A stretch of DNA of 64,000 bases from Candidatus Ryanbacteria bacterium RIFCSPLOWO2_12_FULL_44_26 (GTDB taxonomy: Bacteria; Patescibacteriota; Minisyncoccia; Ryanbacterales; HO2-45-13): contig MHOA01000007.1 of NCBI GenBank assembly GCA_001821765.1, positions 9,565-73,564 of the forward strand, given 5' to 3'. Below, in pieces: positions 10,453 to 64,000 of the stretch (position 1 is the first letter of the stretch; each line of letters starts with the position of its first letter). Under the pieces are notes generated by a model, which did no database searches, was not told the origin of the DNA, and worked only from the letters and a program-made list of their open reading frames with translations. A program made the position numbers and the translations under genes.

Positions 10453-10457
10453 GGGGA

Positions 10458-11039: not shown

Positions 11040-11044
11040 CGTTT

Positions 11045-14327: not shown

Positions 14328-14394
14328 AAGATAAAGGTTTTTTCTGTTTATAGGGGGGGTTGCAAAAAAATTGAATAGAGTGTAGAGTAGTACA

Positions 14395-14420
14395 CAAAAA
14401 CCGCATGGTGCGGTTTTTGT
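14395..14420 (+). terminator. intrinsic terminator after ftsX
   Basis: AAAAACCGCA-TGG-TGCGGTTTTTGTGTT hairpin flanked by A and T tracts. Confidence 0.55.
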
Positions 14421-14443
14421 GTTCTTCGAAAAAGGAGAAAGAG

Positions 14444-16126: not shown

Positions 16127-16252
16127 CGAGCCAACACGGCCACTTTCTCCTAAATTAAACTTGGCGGTCCGACCGCCAAATCAGCCCCGGGGCGCATCCC
16201 ACGCGCCTCGGGGTATTTTTTTGATATTGATGCTGTACTGTAGATGGTTTCC

Positions 16253-16797
16253 TTAGACGCGGCTATAAGCTATAAGCCGGGAAAGGAGCGGCTGATATGC
16301 TGTATGCAATGTTTGCGTCGGTTTCGGTTTTGGCGTTGCGGCTTCTCTCGCCGCCGGCGCCGGTTTCAAAGGACTGCGCTTGTTCAATAGTTCCCAGCGA
16401 TCCAGCGTGCGTTTGACCGAAAACAGGCTTACTACAATTCCATCGTTGAGTAGCCCTCGATGGACAACTTCTGCGCTTCGTTTGACCTTCTTTCTCTTTT
16501 CTATGATTGTCCAAATCATTTCCTGTGATAATTCCTTTGGGTGATGATGAGGCCGTGATGATTGTGTGGTATCCGCTGCCATCCTCCGGTCGGGTCTTTT
16601 TTGTACCATTGTACTATTGTCCCTTGTGCATAACCCAGATGACAAGCGGCCTTTCTGGCACTCCAGTCCCTGTATTTTACGAGGCGGACTGCCTCCATGC
16701 GAACAAGAGGCATCTTGGGATTGGTTGTATATGGCATATGCATATATTCTTGCACAGGGTGATTCCAAGCTGTTGAACCATAACGGGGGGTTGACAT
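16253..16797 (-). pseudogene. transposase/integrase N-terminal remnant (IS481/IS3-like, HTH domains only, frameshifted, DDE core absent)
   Basis: Two HTH-like segments: AVRLVKYRDWSARKAACHLGYAQGTIVQWYKK and, in another frame, ELSQEMIWTIIEKRKKVKRSAEVVHRGLLNDGIVVSLFSVKRTLDRWELL. No catalytic domain follows. The ORF track splits it into 16516..16797 and the C-terminal part of 16253..17089. Confidence 0.45.
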
Positions 16798-16896
16798 AGC
16801 TATAATAGCATGCTACACTCCTTCCCAGTCGCACTTTATATAACCTGCCTATGAGGTCAATGACCAGTAGGCCAATAAATAGAAGGAGGGCCAGTA

Positions 16897-17436
16897 ATGG
16901 CGCCAAGTAACGATTTTCCTCCGCTCGATCTCGTTTTCCGTCGCGTCCAAAGGCGCGACAAGCCGGGCCAGAAGCAATGGCAGGCTTGCCGAAAGGGGAA
17001 TACTGCCACTGTTGTCTACACTCCGGACGACACCTCTCCTGATCCGGAAGCCGAGAACGAGCGGTGGCGGTGCGAGGAGGGACGGACAATCTTCAACGGG
17101 AATGACCTGCAGATTGTCTCGGTACATCTGCAGGAAAAGCTCCTCACCTATGGGGAGGTGGTGAAGCTTTGTTTCGAGCTCGTCGAACGCGGGAACGGCA
17201 AAGGAAAAAGCTGGCAGGCGCGCCGGAATGAAAACGGTGTCACCACCATTTTCGTCCCGGACAAGCGCGGCCCGCAACCGACCTCCTCGGACACGTTCTG
17301 GGAGGGGACGGTATCCTTTCTCGTTTACCGGAGTGATAATGGTTTACTCCGGATCGTCGCTGTTCAACTTGCCAAGGAGTTGATCAGTGAACGCGGAAAA
17401 CGGCGCCGTGATCGGAAGAAGGCGGCCAAGGTGTAG
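16897..17436 (+). CDS. hypothetical protein (high-GC island cargo)
   Basis: 179-aa ORF with the same elevated GC as 14444..16126; basic C-terminus; no motifs recognised. Confidence 0.4.
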   Translation: MAPSNDFPPLDLVFRRVQRRDKPGQKQWQACRKGNTATVVYTPDDTSPDPEAENERWRCEEGRTIFNGNDLQIVSVHLQEKLLTYGEVVKLCFELVERGNGKGKSWQARRNENGVTTIFVPDKRGPQPTSSDTFWEGTVSFLVYRSDNGLLRIVAVQLAKELISERGKRRRDRKKAAKV

Positions 17437-17441
17437 CATGT

Positions 17442-17482
17442 GCCCCGGGTGTGGTTTGAACCACGCTCGGGGCAATTTTTTA
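17442..17482 (+). terminator. imperfect hairpin plus T-tract at the right island boundary
   Basis: GCCCCGGGTGTGG-TTTGAA-CCACGCTCGGGGC followed by AATTTTTTATT. Confidence 0.35.
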
Positions 17483-17784
17483 TTATCGCATTATTCTTTT
17501 CCGAACAATTTTCTAAGTTTCGTTCCCGCTTGCTCAAGAATTTGTTTTTGATTTTTTTGGATGAATTTTTCCCGTAGATAATGATGTTTTTTGCTTTCCG
17601 CGCCATAGCATTTCGGTTTTACGTGATGTTATATTTTAATTTTTAACTTGGATAGTTATCAACAATGTTTCTCGACAGGAAGTAATACATATATTACCCT
17701 TAAAAAAGGCGATGTTCGTTTCCTTCGTTCCATGGCTCGAGGGAGGGTTCCAATATATGATTGTGCCCTAAAAACCCAATAGCT

Positions 17785-23200: not shown

Positions 23201-26200
23201 TTATTGGTTGGTCGTATGCTTACACTTCCTCTTCCCGAGACATAAAGATCGTATGTTGCAACAACGCGGTTACCACGATCATCATTCCCTGCTACAAAAA
23301 CCTCATATTCTCCTGGCGTTTCAAGAGAAAACTCATAAGAAGCGTCCCCATTTCCGTTCGTCCTGAGAGTTGTCTTTTTGACGGTCTCTTTTTTCTGTTC
23401 GGTTCTATAGTAATAGTTGCCATCTACTTCCCGACGCTTAAACGACTCCCAAGTAACTTTCTTAATCTCAAGCTCGAGCCCGCCAACTGATATTGGCGCA
23501 CCCTTCACATCGACAGTTTTTATACGTGCCGTTGTGCTTTCGTTTTGACCGAGAAAACTTCGATCAAGATTAATGCCTGTGTAGTGCCCCCCGCGGTGAA
23601 CAATGAATGATTTTTGAGTCGAAATAGATTGGCCATTCCTATTCCTTACCGTTACGTTGAGTGTGAATATCTTGCTTCTTACACTTTCCTCTTCTTTAAA
23701 TAACTTTTCAAAATCAAGCTTCTGTTCAAGCGACGCACTCCCGTCAGTTCCAAGAGGAACACTGCCTCGTAAGATGTATGTATCACCATAATAGCCATCA
23801 AACCCGTAGTACCAGGGATTCCCGAACCTAAAGTATTGATCACGGTAACGGTCAAAAAAGAAGTCCTGACTTGAAAGCGAGTATTCAACAGTCCCGCTCT
23901 CCACTGGAACGCCAAAGAAGTATTCAGCATTCACAGCGATATGAGCAGTATCGCCCGCAACATATTCTTCTTGATTGGTTTTTGCTTCAACATTAAACGC
24001 TGCGGGTACGTACTCTTCTACATCAAACGACACGTAACCACCGAGTGCCGAGATAGAGTACGTTCCAAGTGGGGCATTTGCGTCCAATGTGAAATTGGCA
24101 GTAAATGTTCCGTATTCACTTACATCTACAGACTGCTTGGAGACAGTTTCATACTTGCTATTTCGGATTTCTATTTCTGCTTTCTTGCCACGATATATCT
24201 CATACTCATCATCATATCCAAGACGAAAGATTCCTTTAATAAAGACCTGGTGGCCCGGGCGGTAAATAGGGCGGTCCGTATAGAGATACGTTCGTTCAGC
24301 AGCCTGAGCAGTTGATGCGTACTGTAGCTTATCGTAACTAGAGGCGACAATCGCGCTGTCACCACCCTTTCGAACGATGGCAGCCATAAGATTATCGAAC
24401 GTATTCGTAAGTGCAATACCATCGTTACCTGTAAAGTAAGAGCCGACGGCTTCCTGATTTTTGCGATAGAGAGTCACTTGTGCACCAGCGACTGGGGCAA
24501 GACTCCCAATTTCGGAAACCCAATAGAGATTTTGTGGGGTTTGTGATAATAAAACATTCGTTAACACATCTTTGCTCGCGGAAGCGCTACCAAAGTCTCG
24601 CCGCTCAATTTTTTTCTCTTGGACCGCAAGGTGTGTTATGGAAAGATATGATTTTTCATAAAGCGCCTGGTCAACCCTCTCCTCATACTTTCTCTCTTGT
24701 GCATTCCATATGCGGTGCACTCTCCTATAATCAGGGTGACTAAACGTTAAAACATAGTGCCCGAGCGAGTCTCCGATATAATTCTTGAGATTGACTTGGA
24801 AGTAACTACGTGACCAGTATTTCCTTGGTAAATTGATGCGATCTTGAATTGTGTTTATACAATTCAATGTACTTGGTGGCGACGTAATTTCTGGTCTGTC
24901 TTCGATATACGATAACATTACTTCTGGTGAGACTTCGCATATGTGTAAGTTGACGTATTCTAGGTTATCTGAAGCAAAGGTCAGTTTTGTACGTCCCGGA
25001 GAAGTAATGTTGTACATGCCTTGCATCTGATAGAAGGTACGATCAAACGAAGTCAATTTGCCACTCGTGAAGCTTACCTTTCTCGATATACTTTGACCAA
25101 AATCATCAAGAAGATTCAATGTGATTTCATAGGGAAACTCGGGCACAAGACCGTACAAGATTGTGTTTTCAAACTGCCCAACCTCACATGCAACCTCCGA
25201 GGTTTTCTCGCGTACCCTATATGGCCCGTACCAATTCCACAATCCGATAGTCACATTACTCTTAACGCGCTCGTAAAAAACTTCTTCATCAGGAACAGTG
25301 AGCGGGTTTGATGTGCAGACCTTTAATGCCTTCAAATCAGCGCCCTGAGCACCACTTTCGGGAGAAGTTTTGTATATAACAAGATCGGGGAACGTTTTAA
25401 CGGTTCTCGTTATTGTTTCTGCGTTGAGTTGTAACCCGGCTGTATTGTATATGCGCTTAAATTCTATAGATATTGATTGTCCGCGTTGCAATTTTGACTC
25501 GTCAAATTTGATAGAAACCCGCTTTCTATCTGGAACTTTTTCACAATTACTACCGTATGAGACTTCCTCGCCCGCATCTGGTTCGCGGCATTTCTCGCCA
25601 TATTCGATACTTGAAATGTGATCCGCCGAAATGAAACTCGCATCCTTATCTATATCTTCAAAAAATGAAACCCAAATCTTTCCTTGGGGATCAAAAAGAT
25701 CTGATTCAGCAAACTGTGTGCGAGGCGATTCAGCCGATACCGTGTCTATAATGTCTGTCGTTTGCATTGCTCCCGCACGTACCTGATTGAGGTCTATATC
25801 TCCTTCAAGTGGATATGCTTTCTTTAAAGTATACGTGTACCCAGTATTAAAATCCCAAAATTGTTTACGCCCATGCTGATCAGCTTCGTTGTAAATCTCA
25901 AGTATTGATTTATCGAGTTTGCGTATTCGCTTTCCAGATGCATCATCATGTACAAACCGAGATCCATAAGAAGCGATAAAATTAACCCGATCATTCCCAC
26001 GCTTTAGAGTAAGTTCGCCTTTCGTTCGCTCGATATTGATCGGTTGATTAAAAACAATGCGAATTGGTTCGTTATATAATGTTTTCGAACTATTATGATT
26101 TTGTGGGATCTCACCTTCATAACGGAGTGGCCATGTAATAAATGCATACTCTTTTTCGTTTACCGAAAGACCATCCGTTGAAACAAAGCCAGACTTCACA

Positions 26201-26895
26201 CGGACCGTGTAGTGAGACGAACGCTGCAGGCGACTCTCTGGAATAAACTGTAGATCACGTGTCGTAATCCATTTGAATTTACCAGGAGTTGTTGGATGTA
26301 TCTCGACAGGAATATTTTCTTCAGACAAAACATCAAGCGCGGTAAGGGGAACCATTGGCCTATTAAATATAATTGTTATTTCGGAGTATTCCGACGCTTC
26401 CGACCCTCCTGCAGGAAAAATGGATATTACCTTCGGATCTTCATCCGCAAGAAAGTCCTTTTCGAGGCGTATTTCGTTCGTTGCCAGAATAACTGTATAG
26501 TATTTTCCAAGTTCAAGTTTCTCTTTCGGTTGATACACCAGCTCGTCATCCTTATTGCCAGCCCTCCAATCACCAGCAACAGCGGGCTCGAACGTCACTT
26601 TAGTGCTTGCTTCGGCGACGTTGAATTTGATGCCTTCGGGTAACCGCACCACAATAGCAGCGCTTTGTGAGATTTTATCCGGAACAAGCGTATAAATTTC
26701 TTCGTACCCGCCCTGTAGATTGCCTCCGTATTTTTGGAATATAAAAAAACCGCCGATGACGATTACCGCAAACACACCTAAAACCACTTCCCATTTTTTG
26801 AGGTGAAAATGATGTGGTTCTGGTGTTTGCACTTGGGCGGGAATGTTGGGTTGAGGTGGATTTACTGGCAAGCTAAGTCCTGTCGACTCATCCAT
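20254..26895 (-). CDS. alpha-2-macroglobulin family protein (bacterial A2M-like, 2213 aa, membrane-anchored)
   Basis: N-terminal TM anchor; YPYGCSEQ thioester-type CxEQ motif in the expected C-terminal third; very long MG-domain-like beta-rich body; size typical of bacterial A2M (YfhM-like) homologues. Confidence 0.6.
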   Translation of the reverse strand: MDESTGLSLPVNPPQPNIPAQVQTPEPHHFHLKKWEVVLGVFAVIVIGGFFIFQKYGGNLQGGYEEIYTLVPDKISQSAAIVVRLPEGIKFNVAEASTKVTFEPAVAGDWRAGNKDDELVYQPKEKLELGKYYTVILATNEIRLEKDFLADEDPKVISIFPAGGSEASEYSEITIIFNRPMVPLTALDVLSEENIPVEIHPTTPGKFKWITTRDLQFIPESRLQRSSHYTVRVKSGFVSTDGLSVNEKEYAFITWPLRYEGEIPQNHNSSKTLYNEPIRIVFNQPINIERTKGELTLKRGNDRVNFIASYGSRFVHDDASGKRIRKLDKSILEIYNEADQHGRKQFWDFNTGYTYTLKKAYPLEGDIDLNQVRAGAMQTTDIIDTVSAESPRTQFAESDLFDPQGKIWVSFFEDIDKDASFISADHISSIEYGEKCREPDAGEEVSYGSNCEKVPDRKRVSIKFDESKLQRGQSISIEFKRIYNTAGLQLNAETITRTVKTFPDLVIYKTSPESGAQGADLKALKVCTSNPLTVPDEEVFYERVKSNVTIGLWNWYGPYRVREKTSEVACEVGQFENTILYGLVPEFPYEITLNLLDDFGQSISRKVSFTSGKLTSFDRTFYQMQGMYNITSPGRTKLTFASDNLEYVNLHICEVSPEVMLSYIEDRPEITSPPSTLNCINTIQDRINLPRKYWSRSYFQVNLKNYIGDSLGHYVLTFSHPDYRRVHRIWNAQERKYEERVDQALYEKSYLSITHLAVQEKKIERRDFGSASASKDVLTNVLLSQTPQNLYWVSEIGSLAPVAGAQVTLYRKNQEAVGSYFTGNDGIALTNTFDNLMAAIVRKGGDSAIVASSYDKLQYASTAQAAERTYLYTDRPIYRPGHQVFIKGIFRLGYDDEYEIYRGKKAEIEIRNSKYETVSKQSVDVSEYGTFTANFTLDANAPLGTYSISALGGYVSFDVEEYVPAAFNVEAKTNQEEYVAGDTAHIAVNAEYFFGVPVESGTVEYSLSSQDFFFDRYRDQYFRFGNPWYYGFDGYYGDTYILRGSVPLGTDGSASLEQKLDFEKLFKEEESVRSKIFTLNVTVRNRNGQSISTQKSFIVHRGGHYTGINLDRSFLGQNESTTARIKTVDVKGAPISVGGLELEIKKVTWESFKRREVDGNYYYRTEQKKETVKKTTLRTNGNGDASYEFSLETPGEYEVFVAGNDDRGNRVVATYDLYVSGRGSVSIRPTNNETLELATNKAEVNVGDQVKIIIKSPYERAKALVTLERGKVFHYEIISIVNNLTEYVFQVKDEHIPNVFGSVLLLSPEPEIKHNQIQYQVNTKEREIDINVQSNKNSYLPGETVELNVETKDKFGRSLETEVSLAVVDMSVLALKGNPKKNPVLFFYRGTPLTVSTASNIKNILHEVDIPTGTKGGSGGGEDPAKKKRGVFKDTAYWEGIVRTDTSGRARVSFILPDNLTTWQIESVGITKDSKVGVGYREFKAQKEVTVVPLRPRFIVPGDAFFIGAQVFNETENRQKLDVSLEGGGLILTGKKELSITLNAHDSMTVYFPVEAPQAVQDGSHTFIVSAKNSDYEDTVENSISITRNNTYESVATAAYTDVATTREYIYLPPNVIPDRGGLEVKTSATLAVFLSDALNYLVEYPYGCSEQIASKLSALGILRRGLSLKNIGDAFTLDNVTFEGQTYSPDDVVRIGLARLYENQSSDGGFSYYKGMPSNYYLTLHVVTALVDLKEAGYDIDASRIDRAGTFLRGQLRQKNELRDNNDLVILSDYTLSRIYGHNYDGEIRNKTLTLARNQQYVSEKASNTSLTYLALILSGSASQDLANNVFTALENKLVIDSRGASIRPNVANTLYQFYETPVKDTALYLKALAVDERDNPVIDKVLRWILRSRAKDGAWGSTNNTIAVVDAFTDFLLWKQETESEFDLNLSLDTNPQATFTFKKDSIFKTFTKFISTQDLGLGKLRSFTLTKTNKNEMPNNYYYDILLKYYLPVENIPPRDEGFSVTREFYRVDDEERETPILEATQGDMLRVRLVIATPHQRNFVSIEDYIPAGMEIVNLSLATEDQSLQSEFPGNDYYYDNYYNDDYYEGGVGMLSNPGLANIWSSFRRFFRLDGPAVSPAVEGELEDDFYGRQVKIVSPLYPDADELHDDRAFLFKERLAPGVYEYEYFVRALVPGTFHHLPAVASEMYFPENFGRTRGELFTVKEAR

Positions 26896-52292: not shown

Positions 52293-54116
52293 ATGCTAAA
52301 GCGCACCACACAAACAACGTTGTCAGCAAAACTAGCAAGAACAGAGGTTCTGTTGTTTGCTGCTGTATTGGTTATCGGATCGCTGTATGCATGGTATGTC
52401 TACGAGCTTGGGTTTACCTTGTTTCTTGTTGACCAAAATGCCCATTTAAATATTTCACGCCTTATCATTGACAGTTTAACGCCTGGAATCAGTCAGATCG
52501 GTTTTTGGCCCCCGCTTCTCCATATACTCATGATTCCGTTTTCGTTCATTGATGTGCTGTATCAAAGCGGTCTTGCCGCCCCTTTTGCGCTGGTGCCGGT
52601 TTTAGGAGTGGGGGCGCTTTTTCTTTATAAACTGCTGTTTCTTTTTACAAAAAGAAAAGCAGCAGGTGTTCTGGGCGCGTTTCTGTTTGTTTCTAATCCG
52701 TACGTGCTTTACTACTCTGTAACGCCAATGACCGAAGCGCTTTTCATATCATCCCTCTTTATTGTCGCGTATTTTCTTGCACACTGGTTGGTTACAGAGC
52801 AATTTTCTTCACTATTATATCTCGGTATATCTATAACGCTTGCAGGCCTTGCCCGCTTTGAGGGATTTCTGCTCGTTCCGATCGCGGTAGTTATTGTTGT
52901 TCTAAAACTAGTATTGCAAAAGAAACACTATCATGAGATTGAGGCGCTGCTTATTTTGTTCGGGCTGATAGCGGTGCTCGGAGGCGTCTTTACTGTTATG
53001 TACGGATGGGTATTTACGGGTGATCCGTTTGCATTTCTCAATAACCCCTTTTCCCCCCAAGCTCAACAGCGGGACTACTTTTTACCATCCAAACACAGCA
53101 TTGTAAATTCATTTCTGTATCTTCTTTACGCTTTATACCACCTGATAGGAAAAACCTTAGGTCTGCTTGCAATAGGTGCATTTGCGGCGCTGCTGTTCTT
53201 GCTTAGAAACAACCGTTTTAATTTTATTGCCGTAAGTTTGGTGCTGATAAGCCCCTTCTTTTTTGACTGGTTTGCCCTTTTTCAGGGCAGCGCTCTTATT
53301 TATGTCCCGGACCTGCCTCCCTTCGGAGAGTTTGCGAACGAGCGATATGGTCTTTATCCGTTCGGGTTCACGGTCTTTGCGGCAGGAATGTTTGTATATT
53401 TTTTGTATGAGCGGGCGCTGTCGCAAAGGGTACTTTGGCCTGTGACTGCAATCGCGACGGGCTTGATCATGGGGCTTCTTTTTTGGAATAGCGCCTTACT
53501 TTTTTATAACGTAACCTATGCGGACACGTTTAAGGTTATCCAAATGTCCGGTAAGGGTTCATTAATACCGGATCAGAGAGAACTTGCGTTGGCGTTGAGG
53601 GGTCAGTATGATTACGGGAAGATTTTGCTTATGCGCGCTATGCAGAACCACATAACCGTTACGGCACAAATTCCGCTCAAGAGCTATATTGTTGAAAGCA
53701 ATTACCCTTACTTCGATGAAGCGCTGGAACTGCCGTGGTTTTTTGCGCGATGGGTGGTTATGTATAACCCCGACATAGCGGTTGTGGAGTGGAGGAAGGA
53801 AAACGAACGCATTTCGGCTCGCTGGGCAAATTCGGATGAATTTCGTGAAGCATATGAGCTTGTTTTTGAAAACGAATCCGAACGTTTATACCGTTTAAGG
53901 GAAGATGTTGTAAGAAAAAAAGCCGCGATGATTGGTATGGATGCATCAACTATTCCTTCATTGAATCCTGATATGGTTCGGTGGGAAACAAGGACGGTAT
54001 ATGCTGAAATTACAGGGAAGTTGAGAGTTTACTATGAGGGGATCATGGTGAAAGCTGACGAAGCAAAGACGTTAGGTTTTGAGATGCAAACCGATGAGGA
54101 TGCTGAAGATAATTGA
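52293..54116 (+). CDS. GT-C fold-like polytopic membrane protein (PMT/ArnT-like putative glycosyltransferase)
   Basis: ~12 TM helices over the first 420 aa, then a soluble C-terminal domain; architecture only, no catalytic motif confirmed. Confidence 0.4.
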   Translation: MLKRTTQTTLSAKLARTEVLLFAAVLVIGSLYAWYVYELGFTLFLVDQNAHLNISRLIIDSLTPGISQIGFWPPLLHILMIPFSFIDVLYQSGLAAPFALVPVLGVGALFLYKLLFLFTKRKAAGVLGAFLFVSNPYVLYYSVTPMTEALFISSLFIVAYFLAHWLVTEQFSSLLYLGISITLAGLARFEGFLLVPIAVVIVVLKLVLQKKHYHEIEALLILFGLIAVLGGVFTVMYGWVFTGDPFAFLNNPFSPQAQQRDYFLPSKHSIVNSFLYLLYALYHLIGKTLGLLAIGAFAALLFLLRNNRFNFIAVSLVLISPFFFDWFALFQGSALIYVPDLPPFGEFANERYGLYPFGFTVFAAGMFVYFLYERALSQRVLWPVTAIATGLIMGLLFWNSALLFYNVTYADTFKVIQMSGKGSLIPDQRELALALRGQYDYGKILLMRAMQNHITVTAQIPLKSYIVESNYPYFDEALELPWFFARWVVMYNPDIAVVEWRKENERISARWANSDEFREAYELVFENESERLYRLREDVVRKKAAMIGMDASTIPSLNPDMVRWETRTVYAEITGKLRVYYEGIMVKADEAKTLGFEMQTDEDAEDN

Positions 54117-54141
54117 CGATATCAGTAATATCATTATCACG

Positions 54142-57100
54142 ATGAGTACAAATATATCTACACCACTGACAAAAACGTTCGTACGCCCGCTTTGTGCTGT
54201 AGCATTTTTTGTGTTTTTCGGTCTTGTCTTTGCCGGTGTTGCAGATGCGCATGAGATGCGCATCAACACCGGAGGCCTCTCCTTCGTTGATACCGGCGGC
54301 AACACTTGGGAAGCCGATGCGCATTTCAACACCGGCAACACCTTCTCCACCGCTGCTGCGATCAGCAACACGGCCGATGACCTGCTCTATCAGACCGAGC
54401 GGTGGGATGATGCGCCCGCCCCAGAGCTTGCGTATGCCATTCCCGTAGCAAACGGCGATTACATGGTTACCCTCCACTTTGCAGAAATCTGGTCAGGAGC
54501 TTTTTCCATCGGTGCACGGGTGTTCGATGTAGGGATGGAAGGAATCACCGTCTTAGACAATATTGATATCTATGCCGAGGCCGGAGCAAACACCGCGCTT
54601 ACAAAAACCTTTACTGCCACCGTCACCGACGGCGCATTGGACATACTTTTTACCCATGTAGTCCAGAATCCCAAGATCGCTGGGATTGAGGTGATGGAAC
54701 ATGAGGAAGAGACGCACCTTATGCATGTGGTGGCGGGTCCTGATCAAACCGTAGTGGATGATGACGGTGATGGCGCCGAATTAGTCACGCTGGATGCAGG
54801 TGATTCCCACACCCATGCGTTTGGCGAAACAATTGTAAGCTGGGTTTGGGCGGAAGGCGTCGAAACCATTGGCACAACTGAAGTCATCACCGCACCTTTT
54901 TCGGTCGGTGTCCATGAAATTTTGCTTGTTGCAACAGATAGTGCAGGAAATACCGGCAGCGATGCGGTAATGGTCACAGTGCTTGCGCCGAACGATGTAC
55001 CCGGCCTTGCCGGCTATTATTTTGATTTTACCGGCACCCCGCTTACATCCATACCGGATGTAAGCGCCCTGCAAGCCGACTGGGCGCAAATAGAGCCAAA
55101 TCTTAATTATGATGCGACATCAGGAAATTTTGCTGGAACTCCTTTTAGCGAAAACTTTGCCGCCCGCTATACGGGATTTATAGATATTCCGGTTGGCGGA
55201 TCATACGGCTTCGCGATAGAAAGCGATGACGGCTCGCGGCTTTTTATAGACGACGCGCTTTTGATCAACAATGACGGACTCCATGCGATGAAGAAGATGT
55301 CCGCGGTCAGCGCGTTATCTGCCGGGATGCATAAGGTTATGATTGAATTTTTTGAGGCAAGCGGGCAAGCAGGATTGAAATTTTACTGGACGCCTCCTGC
55401 GATAGCAGAGCAGATTGTTCCTTCAAGCGCGTTGTTTTATGAATATCCAGCGCTCCTCCCCGTCATCAATGTTATTGATCCTCTTTCAGGGCCCGAGGTC
55501 GGCGGCAATAAAGTAACGATAAACGGTTTTGGGTTTATTTTTTCTGTAGATGAAACAACGGTCAATTTCGGGGGAACAGCGCTTACGGGGAGCAGCCTTA
55601 CGATTATTGACGAAAATACTATAGAGGTTATTGCACCTGCGGGAATCGGAACGGTAGCGGTAAGCGTGGCAACGCCAAATAGCGTAAGCAAAGGAGAAAA
55701 TTATCTTTATATCGAAGATGCTCCGCCGCCCGTTCTGTTTACGAGCGGGACGCTCTTTTCAGGTATTAATGGCCCGACAAGCCTTGCTTTTGGACCTGAC
55801 GGCAAGCTCTATGTAGGAACGCAGTTCGGGACAGTATGGGTGTTAACGCTTGATGATAATCTCAACGTCATTAATTCCTATTCTACCGGCATCATTCAGG
55901 ATTCAGAGTCGACGTTTCGGAGTATTCTTGGCATCGCCTTTAATCCTTTAGATGATCCTTTAAACCCAAAGCTCTATGTGGCGCACAGCTTTCTTTTTCA
56001 TGGAGACGATATTGATTTTTATAAAGGAAAAATAAGCACCTTGAGCGGTCCCGGTTTAAGCGTTAAAGAAGACATTATCACGGGTCTTCCGGTTTCCGAT
56101 CACGATCACGGCATGAACGGCATGGAATTCGGAATGAAAGGGGAAATGTATATTCAAGTCGGAGGCAATACCAATGCCGGTGTCCCGGGAGTGCTCAGTT
56201 CTTCGGGGGAGCTGGATGAAGGGGCGCTTTCAGCGGCCACGCTGGTTGCCCATCTTGAGCGGGAAAATTTTGATGGGAATGTCACTCATAACTCAGCGGG
56301 GGAGCAAACTGGAGGGTTTGATGTTGAGGTTTTTGCTTCCGGTTTTCGCAACCCCTATGATTTGGTTCTGCATTCTAACGGAGGGCTCTATGGAACTGAC
56401 AACGGCCCGAACTTCGGGTATGGAGGGAAATCAACCGGGTGCGCGGCAGAAGGCCCTGACCCTGAAGAGCCTGACGAGCTCAATCTCATTGTTGAGAATG
56501 GATATTATGGCCACGCAAATCGTCTGCGCGGAGCAAGCGATCCTCGGCAGTGCGTGTGGCGCAGTATCTTTGAGCCGAGCGACGCGCAATATACCGCTCC
56601 CATGACAACATTCACCCCATCTACCAATGGCATTACCGAATATCGCTCAAACACCTTCGGCGGGCAATTAAAGGGCCATCTGCTTGCCTCGCGCTGGGAA
56701 GGGGAGCTCTATGACGTTGAGCTTTCAGGTGATGGCAAGAGCGTGGCAAGCCAAAACATCTTAACGCCGCAGGGGGGTCTTGATGTAACGACTGGTCCTG
56801 ATGGAACGATTTTCATCGCCCAACATCTGGCTGGTAAGATTATTTATCATAAGCCCAGTGAACCCGTCCCTTCCGTTCCTCATATTATATCGGCAACACC
56901 CTACCGAGGTCCGCTGACCGGAGAACGAACAGCGCTTATTACCGGTTCTGGGCTTAATGCGGGCGGTATGGCCATGGTCACGTTTGGAGGAAAAAATTGT
57001 CCAACCGTTTCTGTTACATCAACAGCTATAAAGTGCATGGTTCCAGCCGGCGACGCGCCGGGAGCGGTAGACATAGTGGTAACTACCGCAGGCATGACCG

Positions 57101-58557
57101 CCGTTCTTCCCGGGGGATATACCTATATGGATTCAACACTTCCGCCTCCGCCGCCCTTGGTTGGCAAGTGGTTTGCCAAGGTGCCGCTTCCCATTGCAAT
57201 CGGTGAGATGTCGGCTGCGGCGATTGGAGATTTTGTTTATGTGCTGGCTGGTCACGGCGAAGGCGCATATAACGATACGCTCTACCGGTATGATACGATG
57301 CAAAATGTCTGGGAGAGTATGGCGCCGCAGACGGTAGCCCCGTTGGCGGATCACGCAGCTGTTGAGGTTATTAACGGGAAGATATATATGTTTGGCGGGA
57401 TTTTACCTCCGGGGGAAGGAGAATCAAACACACTTGCGATTTATAATCCTGTCACGGATGCATGGTCGCTTGGTTCACCCCTCATGAAAGAAGGCGTGCC
57501 GTATGGGCTTGGCTCGGTTGCATCCGGCGTTATTGGCGGAAAGCTCTATATTGCGGGAGGCATCCACGATGGGAATCTTGCCGGGAATCCAACTGACACG
57601 TTCGTGTATAATCCGGTGGCGGACATATGGACGGAACTTGCCCCAATGCCGTCCGGCAGGAATCACGCCGCTGGCGTGGGTTACAGCGGCAAGTTCTACG
57701 TTTTTAGCGGCAGGCAAGGAGAGAATGATCCAAACGAATTGACGTTTGACGATTCGTACGTGTACGATCCATCCTCTAATACATGGGGAATGCTCGCTCC
57801 CATTCCGACGCCAAGAGGCGGCATGGGAACAGCTGTTGCGCTGCTGGACGAACTTTTTGTAATTGGCGGGGAGGGCGGAGGACCGTCGTCCGGGACGTAT
57901 CCGAATGTTGAAGCGTATAATCCCGTAACAAACACATGGCGCGCACTGCCGGATCTCCCCACGCCCCGGCATGGTATTTATCCCGTGCTGGTTGGGGATG
58001 ATATCCATGTGGTCGCCGGTGGGACAATGGAGGGTCATTCCCATAGCGCAATACACGAAATGTACAATCCCTACGGTATTGATGAGCACCAAGCGCCATC
58101 AGCAGGCATCCGCATCAACACCGGCGGCCTCTCCTTCGTTGATACCGGCGGCAACACTTGGGAAGCCGATGCGCATTTCAACACCGGCAACACCTTCTCC
58201 ACCGCTGCTGCGATCAGCAACACGGCCGATGACCTGCTCTATCAGACCGAGCGGTGGGATGATACCCCAGCTCCGGAATTAGCGTATGCTATTCCGGTAG
58301 ACAATAGTCATTACGAAGTGACCCTCCATTTTGCCGAAATCTGGTCGGGCGCCTTTGCGGTTGGCGCGCGCGTGTTTGATGTGGCCATTGAAGGCGCCAC
58401 GGTTCTAGACGACTTTGACATTTATGCCGAAGCGGGAGCAAACACCGCGCTTACGAAAACCTTCCATGTTGAGGTCTCCGATGGCACGCTGAACATCCTC
58501 TTTTCCCGCGAAGTCCAAAATCCCAAGATCGCTGGGATTGAGGCGGTCAGGCACTAA
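54142..58557 (+). CDS. giant secreted carbohydrate-active multidomain protein: malectin - PA14 - IPT/TIG - sugar-dehydrogenase-like propeller - IPT - Kelch propeller - malectin
   Basis: Signal peptide at the internal Met (MSTNISTPLTKTFVRPLCAVAFFVFFGLVFAGVADA). Malectin-like domains at both ends (INTGGLSFVDTGGNTWEADAHFNTGN...LYQTERWDD...LHFAEIW...RVFDV...NPKIAGIE). PA14 (GLAGYYFDF...SDDGSRLFIDDALLINND...GLKFYW). Kelch repeats (GKIYMFGG, GKLYIAGG, GKFYVFSG). Confidence 0.65.
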   Translation: MSTNISTPLTKTFVRPLCAVAFFVFFGLVFAGVADAHEMRINTGGLSFVDTGGNTWEADAHFNTGNTFSTAAAISNTADDLLYQTERWDDAPAPELAYAIPVANGDYMVTLHFAEIWSGAFSIGARVFDVGMEGITVLDNIDIYAEAGANTALTKTFTATVTDGALDILFTHVVQNPKIAGIEVMEHEEETHLMHVVAGPDQTVVDDDGDGAELVTLDAGDSHTHAFGETIVSWVWAEGVETIGTTEVITAPFSVGVHEILLVATDSAGNTGSDAVMVTVLAPNDVPGLAGYYFDFTGTPLTSIPDVSALQADWAQIEPNLNYDATSGNFAGTPFSENFAARYTGFIDIPVGGSYGFAIESDDGSRLFIDDALLINNDGLHAMKKMSAVSALSAGMHKVMIEFFEASGQAGLKFYWTPPAIAEQIVPSSALFYEYPALLPVINVIDPLSGPEVGGNKVTINGFGFIFSVDETTVNFGGTALTGSSLTIIDENTIEVIAPAGIGTVAVSVATPNSVSKGENYLYIEDAPPPVLFTSGTLFSGINGPTSLAFGPDGKLYVGTQFGTVWVLTLDDNLNVINSYSTGIIQDSESTFRSILGIAFNPLDDPLNPKLYVAHSFLFHGDDIDFYKGKISTLSGPGLSVKEDIITGLPVSDHDHGMNGMEFGMKGEMYIQVGGNTNAGVPGVLSSSGELDEGALSAATLVAHLERENFDGNVTHNSAGEQTGGFDVEVFASGFRNPYDLVLHSNGGLYGTDNGPNFGYGGKSTGCAAEGPDPEEPDELNLIVENGYYGHANRLRGASDPRQCVWRSIFEPSDAQYTAPMTTFTPSTNGITEYRSNTFGGQLKGHLLASRWEGELYDVELSGDGKSVASQNILTPQGGLDVTTGPDGTIFIAQHLAGKIIYHKPSEPVPSVPHIISATPYRGPLTGERTALITGSGLNAGGMAMVTFGGKNCPTVSVTSTAIKCMVPAGDAPGAVDIVVTTAGMTAVLPGGYTYMDSTLPPPPPLVGKWFAKVPLPIAIGEMSAAAIGDFVYVLAGHGEGAYNDTLYRYDTMQNVWESMAPQTVAPLADHAAVEVINGKIYMFGGILPPGEGESNTLAIYNPVTDAWSLGSPLMKEGVPYGLGSVASGVIGGKLYIAGGIHDGNLAGNPTDTFVYNPVADIWTELAPMPSGRNHAAGVGYSGKFYVFSGRQGENDPNELTFDDSYVYDPSSNTWGMLAPIPTPRGGMGTAVALLDELFVIGGEGGGPSSGTYPNVEAYNPVTNTWRALPDLPTPRHGIYPVLVGDDIHVVAGGTMEGHSHSAIHEMYNPYGIDEHQAPSAGIRINTGGLSFVDTGGNTWEADAHFNTGNTFSTAAAISNTADDLLYQTERWDDTPAPELAYAIPVDNSHYEVTLHFAEIWSGAFAVGARVFDVAIEGATVLDDFDIYAEAGANTALTKTFHVEVSDGTLNILFSREVQNPKIAGIEAVRH
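54255..54690 (+). repeat. intragenic direct repeat copy 1 (malectin domain), partner at 58107-58542
   Basis: First ~160 nt and last ~35 nt are nearly identical to the partner copy; the middle is ~75% identical. Confidence 0.7.
58107..58542 (+). repeat. intragenic direct repeat copy 2 (malectin domain)
   Basis: See copy 1. Confidence 0.7.
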
Positions 58558-58646: not shown

Positions 58647-59840
58647 ATGCAGTTTAAGAGCCCCGTAAGACTATTTATACTCCTTTTTGGTTTTATATTC
58701 ATTTTTATCGCTGTTTCAAGCGTAGTTATTGCTGTTTCTTTTTTTAATATGCTGTTGGATACCAAAAAAGAGAATAATACGCCAGCTATTTCGTATCACA
58801 GCACAGATCAGGATTCTGTTGATTCCAAATATCAAGAAGCGCCAGCTATAAAGGAAGAGAACCAGAGAACAGAACATGAGGATCAATCAGTGAAGGGGCT
58901 TGCATTGTCGTTTCCGCCGCCCCCTTCCATTCTTAGAAAACCGCTGACCGGAGAGGCATGTGAGGCGGCGATCAACTCCTCTCCCTTTTACCGTGATCCG
59001 AAATCTCAAGCCGCAAAAGCGCAAATGGCGCTTGCCACAGAGGGACGCACGGAAGACGCCGATGTATTGAGGGAAATTTCCTGTTTTCCGCAGGCTGCAT
59101 GGATTATCGGAGGTTCCCCGGCCGAAGCGCGCGCCCGCGTGGAAGAAATAAACGCTAGAGCAGCGGATCAAAATAAAATTGCGCTTTTTGTTCTTTATAA
59201 TATTCCTTCACATACGACGCCCGCATGGCGAAGCGGTTTAAAGAACGAAGTCTATCGCGATTGGGTTGGCGCCGTTGCCCAAGGAATTGGCATAAGACGG
59301 GCATGGATTGTTCTTGAGCCGGATGCGCTCCCGCTGGCCACCGGCCTTAGTTTAAACGATCAGGCAATTCGGTTAGGAGAAATACGCGATGCCGTTGAAA
59401 TACTAAAAAAACATTCTCTAAACGTTCGGGTGTATCTTGATGCAGGGCACAGTTTCTGGAAAACGCCGGATGCAATTTCAGCGTTGCTGCTGAAGGCGGG
59501 AATCGCGAGAGCGGACGGATTTATCGTGAATGTATCAAACTATCAATTACTCTCCGATGAGCTGATATTTGGTCGCGCGGTTTCGGCGCGCACGGGCAAC
59601 ACGTCATTTATTGTGGATACAAGCCGCAACGGAAACGGCCCTCCCAGCGATAAAGAATGGTGCAATGCGCGGGGACGGGCATTGGGACTGAAGCCAACAA
59701 TCAAGACTGGCGAGCCGTTGGTGGACGCTTATCTTTGGATAAAGCCCCCGGGCGAGTCGGATGGAGATTGCAACGGCGGCCCGCCAGCAGGAAAATTCTG
59801 GCTTGAGTATGCGCTTGATTTGGCACGGAACGCCCTTTAA
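58647..59840 (+). CDS. glycoside hydrolase family 6-like protein (cellulase fold), membrane-anchored; DRDC catalytic-acid motif apparently replaced
   Basis: N-terminal TM; IVLEPDALPLA, YLDAGHSFW, GFIVNVSNY, WCNARGRALGLKP, WIKPPGESDG align with GH6 signature blocks; the segment aligning to the YDLPDRDC box reads YNIPSHTT. Confidence 0.65.
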   Translation: MQFKSPVRLFILLFGFIFIFIAVSSVVIAVSFFNMLLDTKKENNTPAISYHSTDQDSVDSKYQEAPAIKEENQRTEHEDQSVKGLALSFPPPPSILRKPLTGEACEAAINSSPFYRDPKSQAAKAQMALATEGRTEDADVLREISCFPQAAWIIGGSPAEARARVEEINARAADQNKIALFVLYNIPSHTTPAWRSGLKNEVYRDWVGAVAQGIGIRRAWIVLEPDALPLATGLSLNDQAIRLGEIRDAVEILKKHSLNVRVYLDAGHSFWKTPDAISALLLKAGIARADGFIVNVSNYQLLSDELIFGRAVSARTGNTSFIVDTSRNGNGPPSDKEWCNARGRALGLKPTIKTGEPLVDAYLWIKPPGESDGDCNGGPPAGKFWLEYALDLARNAL

Positions 59841-60035
59841 GGGATGGGTATATCTTGTGGATATTTTGTGACCAAAGTGTTTATGAATTTTGGTTCATTT
59901 TTATTGACCATGAGTGTTTGGAATTGTTAAAGTTGTAATGGTAAGAACATGGCATAGAAATATCGAAATAAGAAAACTTAGATCAAGGAAATAAGAGCGC
60001 AGGTTTTTATGAATGTTGGTTTTTAATACAACTTA

Positions 60036-60090
60036 AAAAAGCGCAGGGAAACCGCTTTTCATCAAGTTCTGTACCTGCGCTTTTTTATTA
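60036..60090 (+). terminator. hairpin (large loop) plus T-tract between the GH6 gene and the next cluster
   Basis: AAAAAAGCGCAGG ...26 nt... CCTGCGCTTTTTTATT. Confidence 0.35.
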
Positions 60091-60148: not shown

Positions 60149-61441
60149 ATGAAAAAGAATGTTGTTTTAAGTCTTATCGCGTTCGGCATAGCCATTGTGT
60201 TATTGCCATTGGTTTCAGCGTTTGAGGCGCATGTCATTAACGTAACCGCGCAGATTGATAATAATTTTCTTCTGGACCCCATTCCGGATCTGGATTTCGG
60301 GACTGCCTTTCCGCAGGAAATGCTCGATTTAACGTTTCTTGTTTCTCTCTCTGAATCAATCGCGAATTTTAATGTTGACGATGTTGAATACGTACTCCGG
60401 CAGAAACCGAAATGCGTAAATGATAACGATCCTTCCGACCATCCTCCTGTGTATGAGGACGAAAATGGCAATTTCTTCTGCCCTGAAGGATCAACAATGA
60501 TGCCATTGCTTTGCCCGTATTTATCTAAGACCGAGATTACCTTAGACGGCGATGAAGGCGAAAACGACGGCCCCGCTATACCTCCATTTCATGGACTTCC
60601 CGGACCGTGGACACTCGCCACTACTTTAGCCCACGAGACATTTGGACGCCTCATAGCGTCAGCGAATGATTCCCAAGATGAGTGGAATATTGACCTTAAA
60701 GTGCCTTGTTTTGAGGATCACTGCAGTCAGGATTGGTCTGATTTTATAAGGGATACATCGGAAAATCCCGATATTGATCCTGAAATCTACAAGCTTGATC
60801 CGCTCTTGGAGCACAGCATTTTTGGCTGTGATTTGTGGCTTGAAGTGACTGCCACATCAACCCCCCCCGGATGCGAGGAACAGCTTGATCTCATGCTGGT
60901 TTTGGACCGTTCAGGATCAATTGACGCTGGTGAGCTTACGACGCTTAAGGACGCCGCTAATTCGTTTGTTGATGCCTTAGCTCCTTCAGTAGATACAGTG
61001 CATATTGGGCAGACGAGTTTTTCTACTACTGGAAGTTTAGACCTTCATTTAACCGACGTTGCGTCTGATATACATGACGCGATAAATGCTCTGGTTTCGG
61101 GTGGATTTACCAATCTCAAAAAAGGTATTGAGCTTGCTACAGATGAACTTGATGACGCGCATGAACATGAGCGGCCGGCAACGCCCGACGTGATGGTAAT
61201 CCTCACAGATGGTTTGCCAAATAGGCCGGCCGGTGATCCCGCAGGAGATGCGGCAGCTGCCGCTGATGCCGCGCGCGCGGCAGGCATAGAAATATTCGTG
61301 GTGGGGATAGGCGTGAGCCCCGCGACTGAATCGTATCTAAAAACTGAAATTGCCGATTCAGAGGCGCATTATTTCGGTGCGGCTGATTTTGAGGATCTTG
61401 AACCGATTCTTATAGGGCTTGCGGAGTGCCCAGCGGATTAA
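60149..61441 (+). CDS. secreted protein: TasA-like N-terminal domain (AFEAHVINVTA class) fused to a von Willebrand factor A domain
   Basis: Signal/TM MKKNVVLSLIAFGIAIVLLPLVSA then FEAHVINVTAQIDN...LDFGTAFPQEML; C-terminal VWA with MIDAS DRSGS, ...TDG... Confidence 0.6.
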   Translation: MKKNVVLSLIAFGIAIVLLPLVSAFEAHVINVTAQIDNNFLLDPIPDLDFGTAFPQEMLDLTFLVSLSESIANFNVDDVEYVLRQKPKCVNDNDPSDHPPVYEDENGNFFCPEGSTMMPLLCPYLSKTEITLDGDEGENDGPAIPPFHGLPGPWTLATTLAHETFGRLIASANDSQDEWNIDLKVPCFEDHCSQDWSDFIRDTSENPDIDPEIYKLDPLLEHSIFGCDLWLEVTATSTPPGCEEQLDLMLVLDRSGSIDAGELTTLKDAANSFVDALAPSVDTVHIGQTSFSTTGSLDLHLTDVASDIHDAINALVSGGFTNLKKGIELATDELDDAHEHERPATPDVMVILTDGLPNRPAGDPAGDAAAAADAARAAGIEIFVVGIGVSPATESYLKTEIADSEAHYFGAADFEDLEPILIGLAECPAD

Positions 61442-61623
61442 GCTTCTTGCTACATTCTCTTCTTCTTTTTTAGGAGAAGAGAGACGTAGCCGGAAGATAA
61501 GGGCTGTGAATGGCGCATTAAATAATTTTTTTAAGAAGTGCGTCATCAATAGCTCTTAAGCGAGCTTTCGGTTACAAAATGGTCGATAAATTATTATTAG
61601 TTAAAGACGAATAATAATAAAAA

Positions 61624-62571
61624 ATGAAAAAAAGAATTTTACTTGCATTAGGTTCGGCAGGAGCGGCTGCAGCGATAATCCCGCTTTTTGCGGCATTTGA
61701 AGCGCATGTCATTAATGTGACTGCGAAAATTGAAAACGCTCTTCAAGTGCAGACCGAAGCAATTGAGTTTGGGACTGTTTTCCCAGAAGAAGTGCTCTTT
61801 AAGGATTTTGGCGTTCAATTGAGCGACTCCTTCAGAGAGGAAGGGCGAGTTGATGACGTTGAGTACCATATCAAGCAGAAGGATAAGCCGATAGATCCTC
61901 AAGGGAAAGTCTGTCGCGACGGCACAACAGATTGCGCGCCTGAATTACAGATATCTACCACTCAATTCTGTCACAAAAATCGTCCTACGGATCCAGGGGA
62001 TCCTGAAGATCCTTACTACGATGTCTGCTATCCAAGTCTTTGTCCGTACTTGTCAAAAGATTCGGACGATGATGAACAGGGTTCTTTAGGCAATGACAAT
62101 GACGGAAGCATTGGAGCGTTTCACCGCGCTGAATGCGATGACGGAGAGGATAATGATCTGGATGGAGATATAGATTGGCCTGATGACAATGAGTGCACAT
62201 CGAAATATGACGACGACGAAGATGAAGAAGGTCAGCAGGGATTGGTTAATGGCTATCTTGCCAAGTCCATTCAAGACATTGTAGACATCTGGACTATTGA
62301 CCTCCATGTGCCTTGCTTTAAGGGAAGCTGCGCGCAGGATAATGTCATTCCGGAGGACTACCAGCTTGACCCCCGACTTGAGCATGAAGTATTCGGATGC
62401 GATTTGTGGGTAGAGGTAACGGGAGTAAGCGAGTCAAACGGAGAAATATTGCCGCAATGCAGCGATGGTCTTAATAATGATAGTGACGAAGACATTGATT
62501 CAGCAGATTTAGGTTGTTTAGACGATAGTGGTAATTGGGATCCGACTGACGATGATGAATCGGATGCATAA
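61624..62571 (+). CDS. secreted paralogue with the same AFEAHVINVTA N-terminal domain and a D/E-rich Cys-containing C-terminal region
   Basis: MKKRILLALGSAGAAAAIIPLFAAFEAHVINVTAKIEN...IEFGTVFPEEVL; shares the WTIDLHVPCF...YQLDPRLEHEVFGCDLWVEVT block with 60149; many DxDxD stretches. Confidence 0.55.
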   Translation: MKKRILLALGSAGAAAAIIPLFAAFEAHVINVTAKIENALQVQTEAIEFGTVFPEEVLFKDFGVQLSDSFREEGRVDDVEYHIKQKDKPIDPQGKVCRDGTTDCAPELQISTTQFCHKNRPTDPGDPEDPYYDVCYPSLCPYLSKDSDDDEQGSLGNDNDGSIGAFHRAECDDGEDNDLDGDIDWPDDNECTSKYDDDEDEEGQQGLVNGYLAKSIQDIVDIWTIDLHVPCFKGSCAQDNVIPEDYQLDPRLEHEVFGCDLWVEVTGVSESNGEILPQCSDGLNNDSDEDIDSADLGCLDDSGNWDPTDDDESDA

Positions 62572-62655
62572 GAGGAATTAATATTTGATCCTCGATCACT
62601 CCGGTTCCGGCTTGCCGGGACCGGAGGATTGGGGGATTAACAAACCAAAGGTCGT

Positions 62656-63165
62656 TTGGTATATTATAAGGTCATGGACCCAGTCATGGATTTACGGAAT
62701 GTAAATCGTCAAAAACCGGAAGAAACCGCCATAAAATCAAGAAAATTTACGGGAGGCGAGAAAGTTTTGATAGGAGCAATCACCCTTGTTTTTCTTTTTG
62801 TTTTCTACGTCACGCTGGATGCCAATAAATATAAAGCGCTTGTGCGGGTGATTGAGGGTGAGGGAAGAGTCGGGGTAAATCCCACGACCGAAGCTCTAGA
62901 TTTCGGGGATCTCTCGCGCGGCACCTCCGCCGTAAGAGGAGTTGAAATAGTGAATGCCACTCCTATTCCCATGTTCATTATGGTGCTGCGGGTGGGCGGA
63001 ATTTCCGAGCTTATGGATCTTGATAAAAACAATTTTGTGCTTTCTGCCAGAGAGACCGAGCGCCTCCAGTTTACAGTCTTTATTCCTGCTTCCGCTCCGG
63101 TCGGGGAAGAATTTTCCGGTAGGGTATTCCTTTTTAAAGTTCCAGGGCCTTGGCGTAAGAGCTGA
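62656..63165 (+). CDS. hypothetical membrane-anchored protein with LDFGDLSRGTS motif (possible accessory of the SipW-dependent system)
   Basis: One TM helix, then a beta-rich 110-aa domain; it shares the LDFG motif with the paralogues. Confidence 0.4.
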   Translation: MVYYKVMDPVMDLRNVNRQKPEETAIKSRKFTGGEKVLIGAITLVFLFVFYVTLDANKYKALVRVIEGEGRVGVNPTTEALDFGDLSRGTSAVRGVEIVNATPIPMFIMVLRVGGISELMDLDKNNFVLSARETERLQFTVFIPASAPVGEEFSGRVFLFKVPGPWRKS

Positions 63166-63167
63166 GG

Positions 63168-63608
63168 ATGATAAAAAGAGCCGCTCGCGTAATCCTAAAC
63201 GCGGCTGTCTACATTTTAATAATTGTGAGTATCGTATGGGGGCTCCCTCAATTTTTGTCGTGGAAGCTGGAAACTCCTTATCCTTTAGCCGCGATTACTT
63301 CCGGCTCCATGTGGCCCGCTTTGAAAGAGGGCGATCTTGTTTTGATAAAGCGCGTCGGGAAGGATGAGATCAAAAAAAGCGACATTATCGTCTGGAAAAA
63401 CGAGCGCGGCTTTACGATCCACAGGGTTGTGGCGCTCAAGGATAAGATGCTCGTTACGAAAGGAGATGCCAACTTCGTCGAGGACGAGCCGGTGCGCTAT
63501 GAAAACGTCGTTGGCGAGGCGCTGACGTTTCGCGGCAAAACCGCGCGCATTCCGTATCTTGGATTTATTTCAGTGATGGGAGCAAACATTCTGGAATCCG
63601 CCAATTGA
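63168..63608 (+). CDS. signal peptidase I, archaeal/ER type (S26B, SipW-like)
   Basis: 146 aa, single N-terminal TM, catalytic Ser box ITSGSMWPAL, His region FTIHRVVAL, TKGDANFVEDEP box; far shorter than LepB-type SPases. Confidence 0.65.
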   Translation: MIKRAARVILNAAVYILIIVSIVWGLPQFLSWKLETPYPLAAITSGSMWPALKEGDLVLIKRVGKDEIKKSDIIVWKNERGFTIHRVVALKDKMLVTKGDANFVEDEPVRYENVVGEALTFRGKTARIPYLGFISVMGANILESAN

Positions 63609-63925
63609 ATTATTTATTGTTTATGAAACGCGCCGGAAAAAATCTGAAAAAGCGAAGCGTCACCGGGTTCAAAGAAGGACCGCGACTTTGGGATTGGGCA
63701 ATAACGGAAGAAGCCGACGGCATGATATTACGATTCGTAAAAGTGCCACGGCGCATCCGCTACGTGCCGGTAACGGATATTGTTCCTCCGGCGGCACCTT
63801 GCAGGCCAACAACCGCTGGAACCGGACATGCCTATAAAAAATCCATTGCGCTAGATCGTTCACGGAGAAGTTCCATTGCGGGAAGGATCATAAAATCGCT
63901 CTTTCAAAGGCGCTCGCTTGTCGGC

Positions 63926-64000
63926 ATGACATCGGGAGCGCTTATTATAACCGTTGCCCTTTTGCCGCTGCTTTCCGCGTTTGAAGCGCATGTCATTAAT
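63926..64000 (+). CDS. third paralogue of the AFEAHVIN secreted protein family (3' partial, runs off window)
   Basis: MTSGALIITVALLPLLSAFEAHVIN; an upstream in-frame extension to 63624 exists but the paralogues start at the signal peptide. Confidence 0.45.
   Translation, partial: MTSGALIITVALLPLLSAFEAHVIN

Follow-up and report, generated by a model that had tools for sequence, protein, structure and literature searches.

A cassette of five open reading frames (ORFs), all on the plus strand, lies at the 3' end of a 64-kb stretch of DNA from Candidatus Ryanbacteria, an ultrasmall bacterium of groundwater (64,000 nucleotides of contig MHOA01000007.1, referred to below as the window). It encodes two related proteins, P1 and P2, which carry a signal peptide and a Cys-rich core domain, a membrane protein, a signal peptidase and the beginning of a third protein, P3, which has in common with the first two an almost invariant 13-residue N-terminal segment, the tag. 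All five ORFs are present where the initial annotation of this DNA had placed them. In public records, which include contigs identical to the window from aquifer metagenome-assembled genomes of Candidatus Ryanbacteria, the proteins appear as 'hypothetical protein', 'VWFA domain-containing protein' and 'signal peptidase I', and the cassette is not annotated as a system. Its features are the following:

60034..60087, plus strand: terminator-like hairpin with flanking A-run and T-run, found by RNA folding
60149..61441, plus strand: P1, ORF of 430 aa with signal peptide, tag, Cys-rich core domain and VWA domain (330 bits on the family hidden Markov model, HMM)
60218..60256, plus strand: tag of P1, residues 24-36, AFEAHVINVTAQI
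60257..60868, plus strand: core domain of P1, residues 37-240, modelled as a beta-sandwich with a Cys-rich insert
60887..61402, plus strand: VWA domain of P1, residues 247-418 (PF00092), with a DRSGS motif of the metal-ion-dependent adhesion site (MIDAS) type
61624..62571, plus strand: P2, ORF of 315 aa with signal peptide, tag and core domain (family HMM, 253 bits)
61693-61731, plus strand: tag of P2
62686..63165, plus strand: membrane protein, 159 aa (alternative TTG start at 62656)
63168..63608, plus strand: signal peptidase I, 146 aa (TIGR02228)
63926..64000, plus strand: start of P3, a tag-only protein whose tag begins at 63977 (frame open from 63605 on and exiting the window)

In a six-frame translation of the window, the tag motif F-E-A-H-[VIL]-[VIL]-N-[VI] occurs three times, always in a cassette gene, which bears out the earlier remark that three secreted proteins have a near-identical N-terminus. 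The three copies are identical at 12-14 of 15 positions in protein and at 36-38 of 45 in DNA, the differences being synonymous, and this argues for selection on the peptide rather than for recent gene conversion. The logo drawn from 206 ORFs of 76 loci reads [small]-A-[F/Y]-E-A-H-[V/I]-[I/V]-N-V-T-A-x-I. The E is found in all 206 ORFs, and A(-1), F/Y, A, H, N, V, T and A in at least 97% each, the latter figures coming from a looser regular expression that admitted variants. In the proteins that carry the tag but not the core domain (tag-only proteins), conservation ends at about position +12, where a Pro-rich linker begins, which makes the tag a portable module. A search of the literature for the motif gave no match. 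The tag can serve directly to list the clients of the system in any genome. The N-V-T within it (60236-60244, 61711-61719 and 63995-64000, the last cut by the window end) is also an N-glycosylation sequon (N-x-S/T), with T or S in about 97% of the ORFs, which might be relevant should these bacteria possess an oligosaccharyltransferase.

The 146-aa protein had been taken for a signal peptidase of the S26B type, and its scores agree with this. It reaches 88.9 bits on the archaeal-type model TIGR02228 (cutoff 51.85), as against 45.1 bits on the bacterial model TIGR02227, which is under the cutoff of 47, and 49.9 bits on the SipW equivalog NF046067, far under the cutoff of 190. Its boxes comprise Ser47 in SGSMWP, His85 in IHR and GDAN..D at residues 99-106; S45, S47, M48, W49, P50, H85, R86, G99, D100, N102 and D106 are at least 95% conserved in 63 cassette peptidases. 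The protein has one N-terminal transmembrane helix and no C-terminal hydrophobic segment. This is the Ser/His pattern of the endoplasmic reticulum (ER) type, with His instead of the LepB Lys, and by analogy with SipW and Sec11 the residues would be catalytic. No LepB-type peptidase was recognized by its box motifs in the window, the rest of the genome being outside the scope of that scan.

Homology between P1 and P2 extends over ~240 aa, with 34% identity and an E-value of 1e-35. The initial annotation had one paralogue fused to a VWA/MIDAS domain and another to a D/E-rich region. Indeed, P1 matches PF00092 with 89.2 bits (cutoff 23.8; 4.9e-25) and has the DxSxS motif, as DRSGS, at residue 253, while the core domain of P2 holds a D/E- and Cys-rich insertion and is followed by an acidic C-terminal tail, two stretches of the protein having D/E fractions of 0.39 and 0.33; P2 has no Pfam or NCBIfam match. 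The alignment of the core domain shows six conserved Cys and, in addition, conserved E57, Q85-K86, K127, H148, W179, D182, E221 and GCDLW. N31 and K86 are invariant in sequence set A3 (90 sequences), where E57 is at least 90% conserved; in set A1, E57 and K86 are invariant and N31 is at least 90% conserved. The family gives 566 matches in a 90%-clustered database; among 1.84 billion representatives it accounts for 657 clusters, 282 of them at E<=1e-30, and its named sources are all Patescibacteria. Stand-alone core-domain proteins have no Pfam domain; long members carry SpaA_2/4, VWA, MopE-type, LTD, beta-helix, DUF642, ice-binding, LamG or PA14 domains. An AlphaFold2 monomer model of a core protein has a mean predicted local distance difference test score (pLDDT) of 84.5, with the core above 90, and the tag region, at 48-68, is not confidently docked. 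As modelled, the core is a Cys-rich PapD/ASH-like beta-sandwich with variable passenger domains. A Foldseek search of the PDB with this model returned no match at E<=1e-3, and a comparison of the family profile with PDB sequences returned nothing relevant.

The membrane protein had been described as 169 aa long and carrying LDFGDLSRGTS. The motif is there, and the length has to be revised, since gene callers and the alignment of homologues prefer the ATG at 62686 to the TTG at 62656. A variable N-region is followed by one transmembrane helix (residues 23-45), the invariant LDANKY and an immunoglobulin (Ig) sandwich, within which LDFGDLSRGTS sits. The ectodomain shows a PapD/MSP/ASH-like Ig fold, the similarity being at the level of the fold only: on sequence HMMs (ASH, Cep192_D2, choice-of-anchor D) the protein stays below threshold, at 12-14.5 bits versus cutoffs of 27-45. 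In the model, the strand that follows the transmembrane helix, equivalent to the tag strand, is confidently docked. Homology of this protein with the core family, which a common LDFG pattern might suggest, was rejected (hhalign, 0.3%), as was homology with TasA (0.35%), and LDFG is therefore regarded as a generic sandwich pattern. LDANKY (62818-62835, residues 44-49) stands directly after the helix, and L-D-A| fits the -3/-1 rule, so that the membrane protein might be cleaved by the peptidase rather than anchored.

The part of the ORF at 63926 that lies in the window starts MTSGALIITVALLPLLSAFEAHVIN. Read on the full contig (L001), P3 reaches 579-686 aa; its body is unrelated, its tail is acidic, and what it has in common with P1 and P2 is the signal peptide plus AFEAHVINVTAKIE only; neither an LDFGT motif nor a Cys-rich core is present. 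The LDFGT.FP.E.L motif, attributed earlier to three paralogues, and the new Cys-containing domain thus hold for P1 and P2 and not for P3. The start of P3 is ambiguous (63605, 63623 or 63926), gene callers preferring 63605 or 63623. In more than 40 loci, most tag-only proteins have, before the h-region, an open K/R-rich stretch of 20-150 aa, here 63605-63925. Tag-only proteins carry LTD, CBM96, malectin, CBM_4_9, SdrD_B/SpaA or Fn3-associated modules. Judged by domain matches, the passengers of core and tag-only proteins alike are surface adhesin or binding architectures.

The cassette is found in many lineages of Patescibacteria. When species-representative genomes were scanned, 76 loci were detected. 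Almost all of them carry a Patescibacteria label, the exceptions being a few short contigs binned as Gammaproteobacteria or Bacteroidales. Of the 76 loci, 61 have a homologue of the peptidase, 62 have the membrane protein and 71 have the tag, and the loci missing a component are mostly short contigs; the gene set, whose co-occurrence in related genomes had been proposed as a check, does travel together. The order is almost always two to five core paralogues, membrane protein, peptidase and tag-only protein, with the tag-only gene directly 3' of the peptidase in 43 loci. All-against-all clustering revealed no other conserved neighbour family.

One contig (CAZTQA010000003.1, 8111-16630) carries two cassettes side by side. 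The first, of the AFEAH type, comprises a core gene, the membrane protein, peptidase 1 and a tag-only LTD protein. Immediately downstream, the second comprises TasA-like genes (TIGR04088, 34.9 and 19.6 bits; PF12389, 31.6 bits), peptidase 2 and an LTD protein starting ..TMAYFNDTE. The two peptidases are 31% identical to each other and score differently on the SipW model, 113 bits for peptidase 2 and 46 bits for the AFEAH-cassette enzyme. The AFEAH and TasA/SipW systems are parallel but distinct in this contig, and the presence of a peptidase in each cassette argues for private enzyme-substrate pairs. We regard as a secure inference that the cassette provides a private peptidase together with a private set of substrates defined by the tag, the former presumably processing the latter.

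The initial annotation had likened the arrangement to tapA-sipW-tasA and the N-termini of the paralogues to TasA/camelysin. The parallel survives in its logic, a SipW-like private peptidase serving cognate surface proteins that are modular and contain a new domain; homology with TasA and its fold is wrong or unproven. PF12389 gives no match at E<=1 for P1 and P2, and none of 90 family members matches it; TIGR04088, TIGR04089 and TIGR04090 give no match at E<=10 for the N-terminal 245 aa of P1, P3 and two homologues, nor at E<=1 for full-length P1 and P2. In controls, TasA scored 38 bits on the models of the SipW-cognate signal, and all TasA homologues carried PF12389. The core was not found to superpose as a jelly roll on TasA (5OF1, 8AUR). 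When A1 was aligned by hhalign to a 45-sequence TasA profile, the probability was 38.9% over 65 N-terminal columns only, which is not significant; this stretch (signal peptide, AAF and first strands) is the resemblance seen earlier by eye. The core family is not TasA, or at most not demonstrably so, and we consider it very unlikely that P1 and P2 are extremely divergent true members of TasA/camelysin (Peptidase_M73) with a jelly-roll fold. Homologues of TasA (PF12389) in Patescibacteria have already been noted (PMC9245690), and this was the sole relevant statement retrieved in a search of the literature on TasA and SipW in the candidate phyla radiation.

How might such a cassette function? Our tentative answer, to which we give not quite an even chance, is that it is a Patescibacteria-specific set of surface proteins working like the SipW systems of Firmicutes (tapA-sipW-tasA and sipW-bsaABC). 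The co-encoded proteins, marked by the h-region and AFEAHVINVTAxI, would be exported by Sec and processed by the private peptidase. The substrates would be of two kinds: core proteins such as P1 and P2, with a tag, a sandwich and variable passengers (VWA, SpaA-like, MopE-like), and tag-only proteins such as P3, in which a Pro-rich linker joins the tag to large binding modules. The third partner would be the single-pass membrane protein with its external PapD/MSP-like Ig domain. If the peptidase cut immediately ahead of the tag, at a site like that of TasA (WA|AFND), AFEAHVINVTA would become a free N-terminal beta-strand, which would be inserted as a donor strand to complement the sandwich of the following subunit. 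A short heteropolymer might result, with the tag-only adhesin in the distal position (donor without acceptor), core proteins forming the shaft (donor and acceptor) and the uncleaved PapD-like membrane protein serving as base or anchor of the chain. In TasA, the donor strand consists of the first 11 mature residues (A28-T38), and TapA has the same segment on a different body (PMC9674648). In BsaA, the donor strand is made of residues 28-38, N35 is bonded to K74 with E56 as catalyst, and the operon includes a VWA protein (PMC11580942).

The weak point of this mechanism is the place of cleavage, for the conservation logos leave three candidate sites, and alternative cleavages may give mature N-termini reading AFEAHVINVTAK, FEAHVINVTAK, HVINVTAK or IENALQVQ... 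Several observations weigh against assembly through the tag. A textbook -3/-1 site, V-T-A|, stands at the end of the tag with no Pro at P1' (Pro starts at P2'), and of the candidates it is the most invariant. In a manual alignment, the signal peptides of divergent core paralogues show a plain V-S-A close to this site; the TasA-like site has a non-small residue at -1 in about one quarter of the tag-only proteins, whose conservation ends within 2-3 residues of the VTA site; and both faces of the strand are invariant, as would be expected of a peptide gripped by an enzyme. If cleavage occurred at VTA|, the tag would be a sorting signal that is removed, and a fibre would have to do without this donor strand. 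AFEAHVINVTA would then be a long c-region, the substrates would be released or displayed singly with no fibre, and the membrane protein could be a chaperone, a holdase, an anchor or a cofactor of the peptidase. However, at 9-12 residues such a c-region would reach or exceed the length normally seen in signal peptides. Moreover, sorting alone leaves unexplained why the core domain is so extremely conserved and why the genes keep a fixed order; TasA, TapA and BsaA keep their conserved segment as a donor strand; and hhalign pairs FAAF here with TasA WAAF, which is cleaved A|AF. On account of this ambiguity, we hold donor-strand assembly to be quite possible while falling somewhat short of probable, and sorting alone to be a serious contender that is clearly short of probable as well.

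Cleavage at the remaining site, FEA|H, would expose an N-terminal His, which might bind Cu or Zn in the manner of a histidine brace together with H148 and E221-H222, and the role of the proteins at the surface would be in redox chemistry or metal binding instead of in structure. E26, A27 and H28 are invariant, as is the Ala at -1; H148, E221 and H222 are invariant or nearly so (H222 being taken from the consensus); the core is predicted to be a beta-sandwich, some members have MopE-type metal-binding motifs or DUF642, and a GH6 cellulase adjoins in the window. Even so, we consider a metal centre highly improbable.

To return to assembly by donor strand, a TasA-like cleavage before A24 would put N31 at the eighth mature residue, as N35 in BsaA, and a BsaA-type Asn-Lys isopeptide lock formed by N31, E57 and K86 can be imagined, although we think it rather improbable. 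In its most extended form the proposal amounts to an unrecognized class of surface fibre, of an origin evolutionarily separate from TasA: a chaperone-free, donor-strand, possibly isopeptide-locked heteropolymer of PapD/ASH-like sandwiches with an adhesive passenger on each subunit, a lectin-like tag-only cap at the distal end and a PapD-like membrane root, released stepwise by the ER-type peptidase. This complete picture we rate as unlikely. If true, the fibre could be a main host-attachment tool of these episymbionts.

According to PMC11623550, all cultivated Patescibacteria live attached to other microbes. Studies of this attachment have centred on type IV pili, and the cassette, which links a peptidase to proteins of adhesin or carbohydrate-binding type, is a testable candidate for machinery of attachment to hosts or surfaces. 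It would also widen the principle of SipW plus cognate signal to a new class of signal and a new substrate fold.

Some core relatives lack AFEAH and have ordinary signal peptides of the V-S-A type. They occur at 10334-12307 in locus L053, 12031-13680 in L021, 1699-2982 in L034 and 12881-13984 in L071, and further ones at 15704 in L036, 5790 in L022, 13817 in L051, 13377 in L070 and 6793 in L032, often after a tag-only gene. They could be acceptor-only subunits, or point to VTA| cleavage of the canonical tag.

Upstream of the cassette, a 1492-aa protein with malectin, PA14, TIG, GSDH and kelch domains is encoded at 54079-58557; its two ends, N- and C-terminal, carry nearly identical malectin-like modules of ~190 aa. 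The gene that comes next, at 58647-59840, is that of a GH6 glycoside hydrolase. GH6 seems a notable neighbour for a bacterium with a small genome. These two genes were considered as parts of the system and rejected: they are not conserved in the other loci, and the hairpin at 60034..60087 (-22.7 kcal/mol, z -6.3, 0 of 200 shuffles equally stable) keeps the GH6 gene and the cassette apart. Scans for promoter and terminator consensus sequences yielded nothing above shuffled expectation. In L001, L002 and L003, tandem genes of 8xMP-family membrane proteins lie downstream of the window, at 14000-17500; the number of 8xMP genes and intervening small ORFs differs between otherwise identical contigs of different samples, which points to a copy-number-variable array. 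Elsewhere, GC content has a local peak (0.55 vs ~0.45) at 14001-16000, around a 573-aa ORF at 14405-16126, and a 2213-aa ORF occupies 20254-26895 on the minus strand.

Among known systems, tapA-sipW-tasA of Bacillus subtilis, whose TasA fibres assemble by donor-strand exchange, is one of the closest. In both, a dedicated peptidase of ER/archaeal type is encoded among its presumed substrates, the conserved N-terminal segment of these substrates starts with A-F right after the h-region, and one substrate with a different body has that segment only (TapA there, P3 here). The differences are that PF12389/TIGR04088 membership is detectable here neither in sequence nor in fold, that the cassette has a Cys-rich, PapD/ASH-like core with passengers, an additional PapD-like membrane protein and several shaft-type paralogues per locus, and that its peptidase, of 143-150 aa, is shorter than SipW, has no hydrophobic segment at the C-terminus and obtains only 46-50 bits with the SipW model. 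Like sipW-bsaA-bsaB-bsaC of Clostridium perfringens, the cassette combines a peptidase with several cognate proteins, one of them with a VWA domain, and has an Asn at about mature position 8 of the conserved N-terminal strand, with conserved Glu and Lys further downstream; N31, E57 and K86 would correspond to N35, E56 and K74 of BsaA. It differs in having no TIGR04090 match and no type IV pilus genes conserved in the neighbourhood. The similarity to archaeal donor-strand filaments (AbpA pili, the Pyrodictium cannulae CanA/CanX and DUF1102 tubes) is no better than that to unrelated sandwiches; no sequence relationship was found, and those filaments have no dedicated peptidase gene and no passenger domains. 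Unlike chaperone-usher pili, which have PapD-like chaperones and take donor strands from N-terminal extensions, the cassette comes with no usher and no outer membrane, and its 'chaperone' would be one-domain and membrane-anchored. Finally, sortase-assembled pili of Gram-positive bacteria also combine SpaA-type and VWA modules with a membrane enzyme that reads a short invariant sorting motif. There the motif is a C-terminal LPXTG and the enzyme a cysteine transpeptidase; here no sortase is conserved in the loci, the C-termini of P1 (...AECPAD), P2 (...DDESDA) and P3 (...IVTEA) have neither LPXTG nor a transmembrane segment, the motif is N-terminal and its presumed reader is a serine signal peptidase, and a tip-shaft-base organization like that of sortase pili is plausible.

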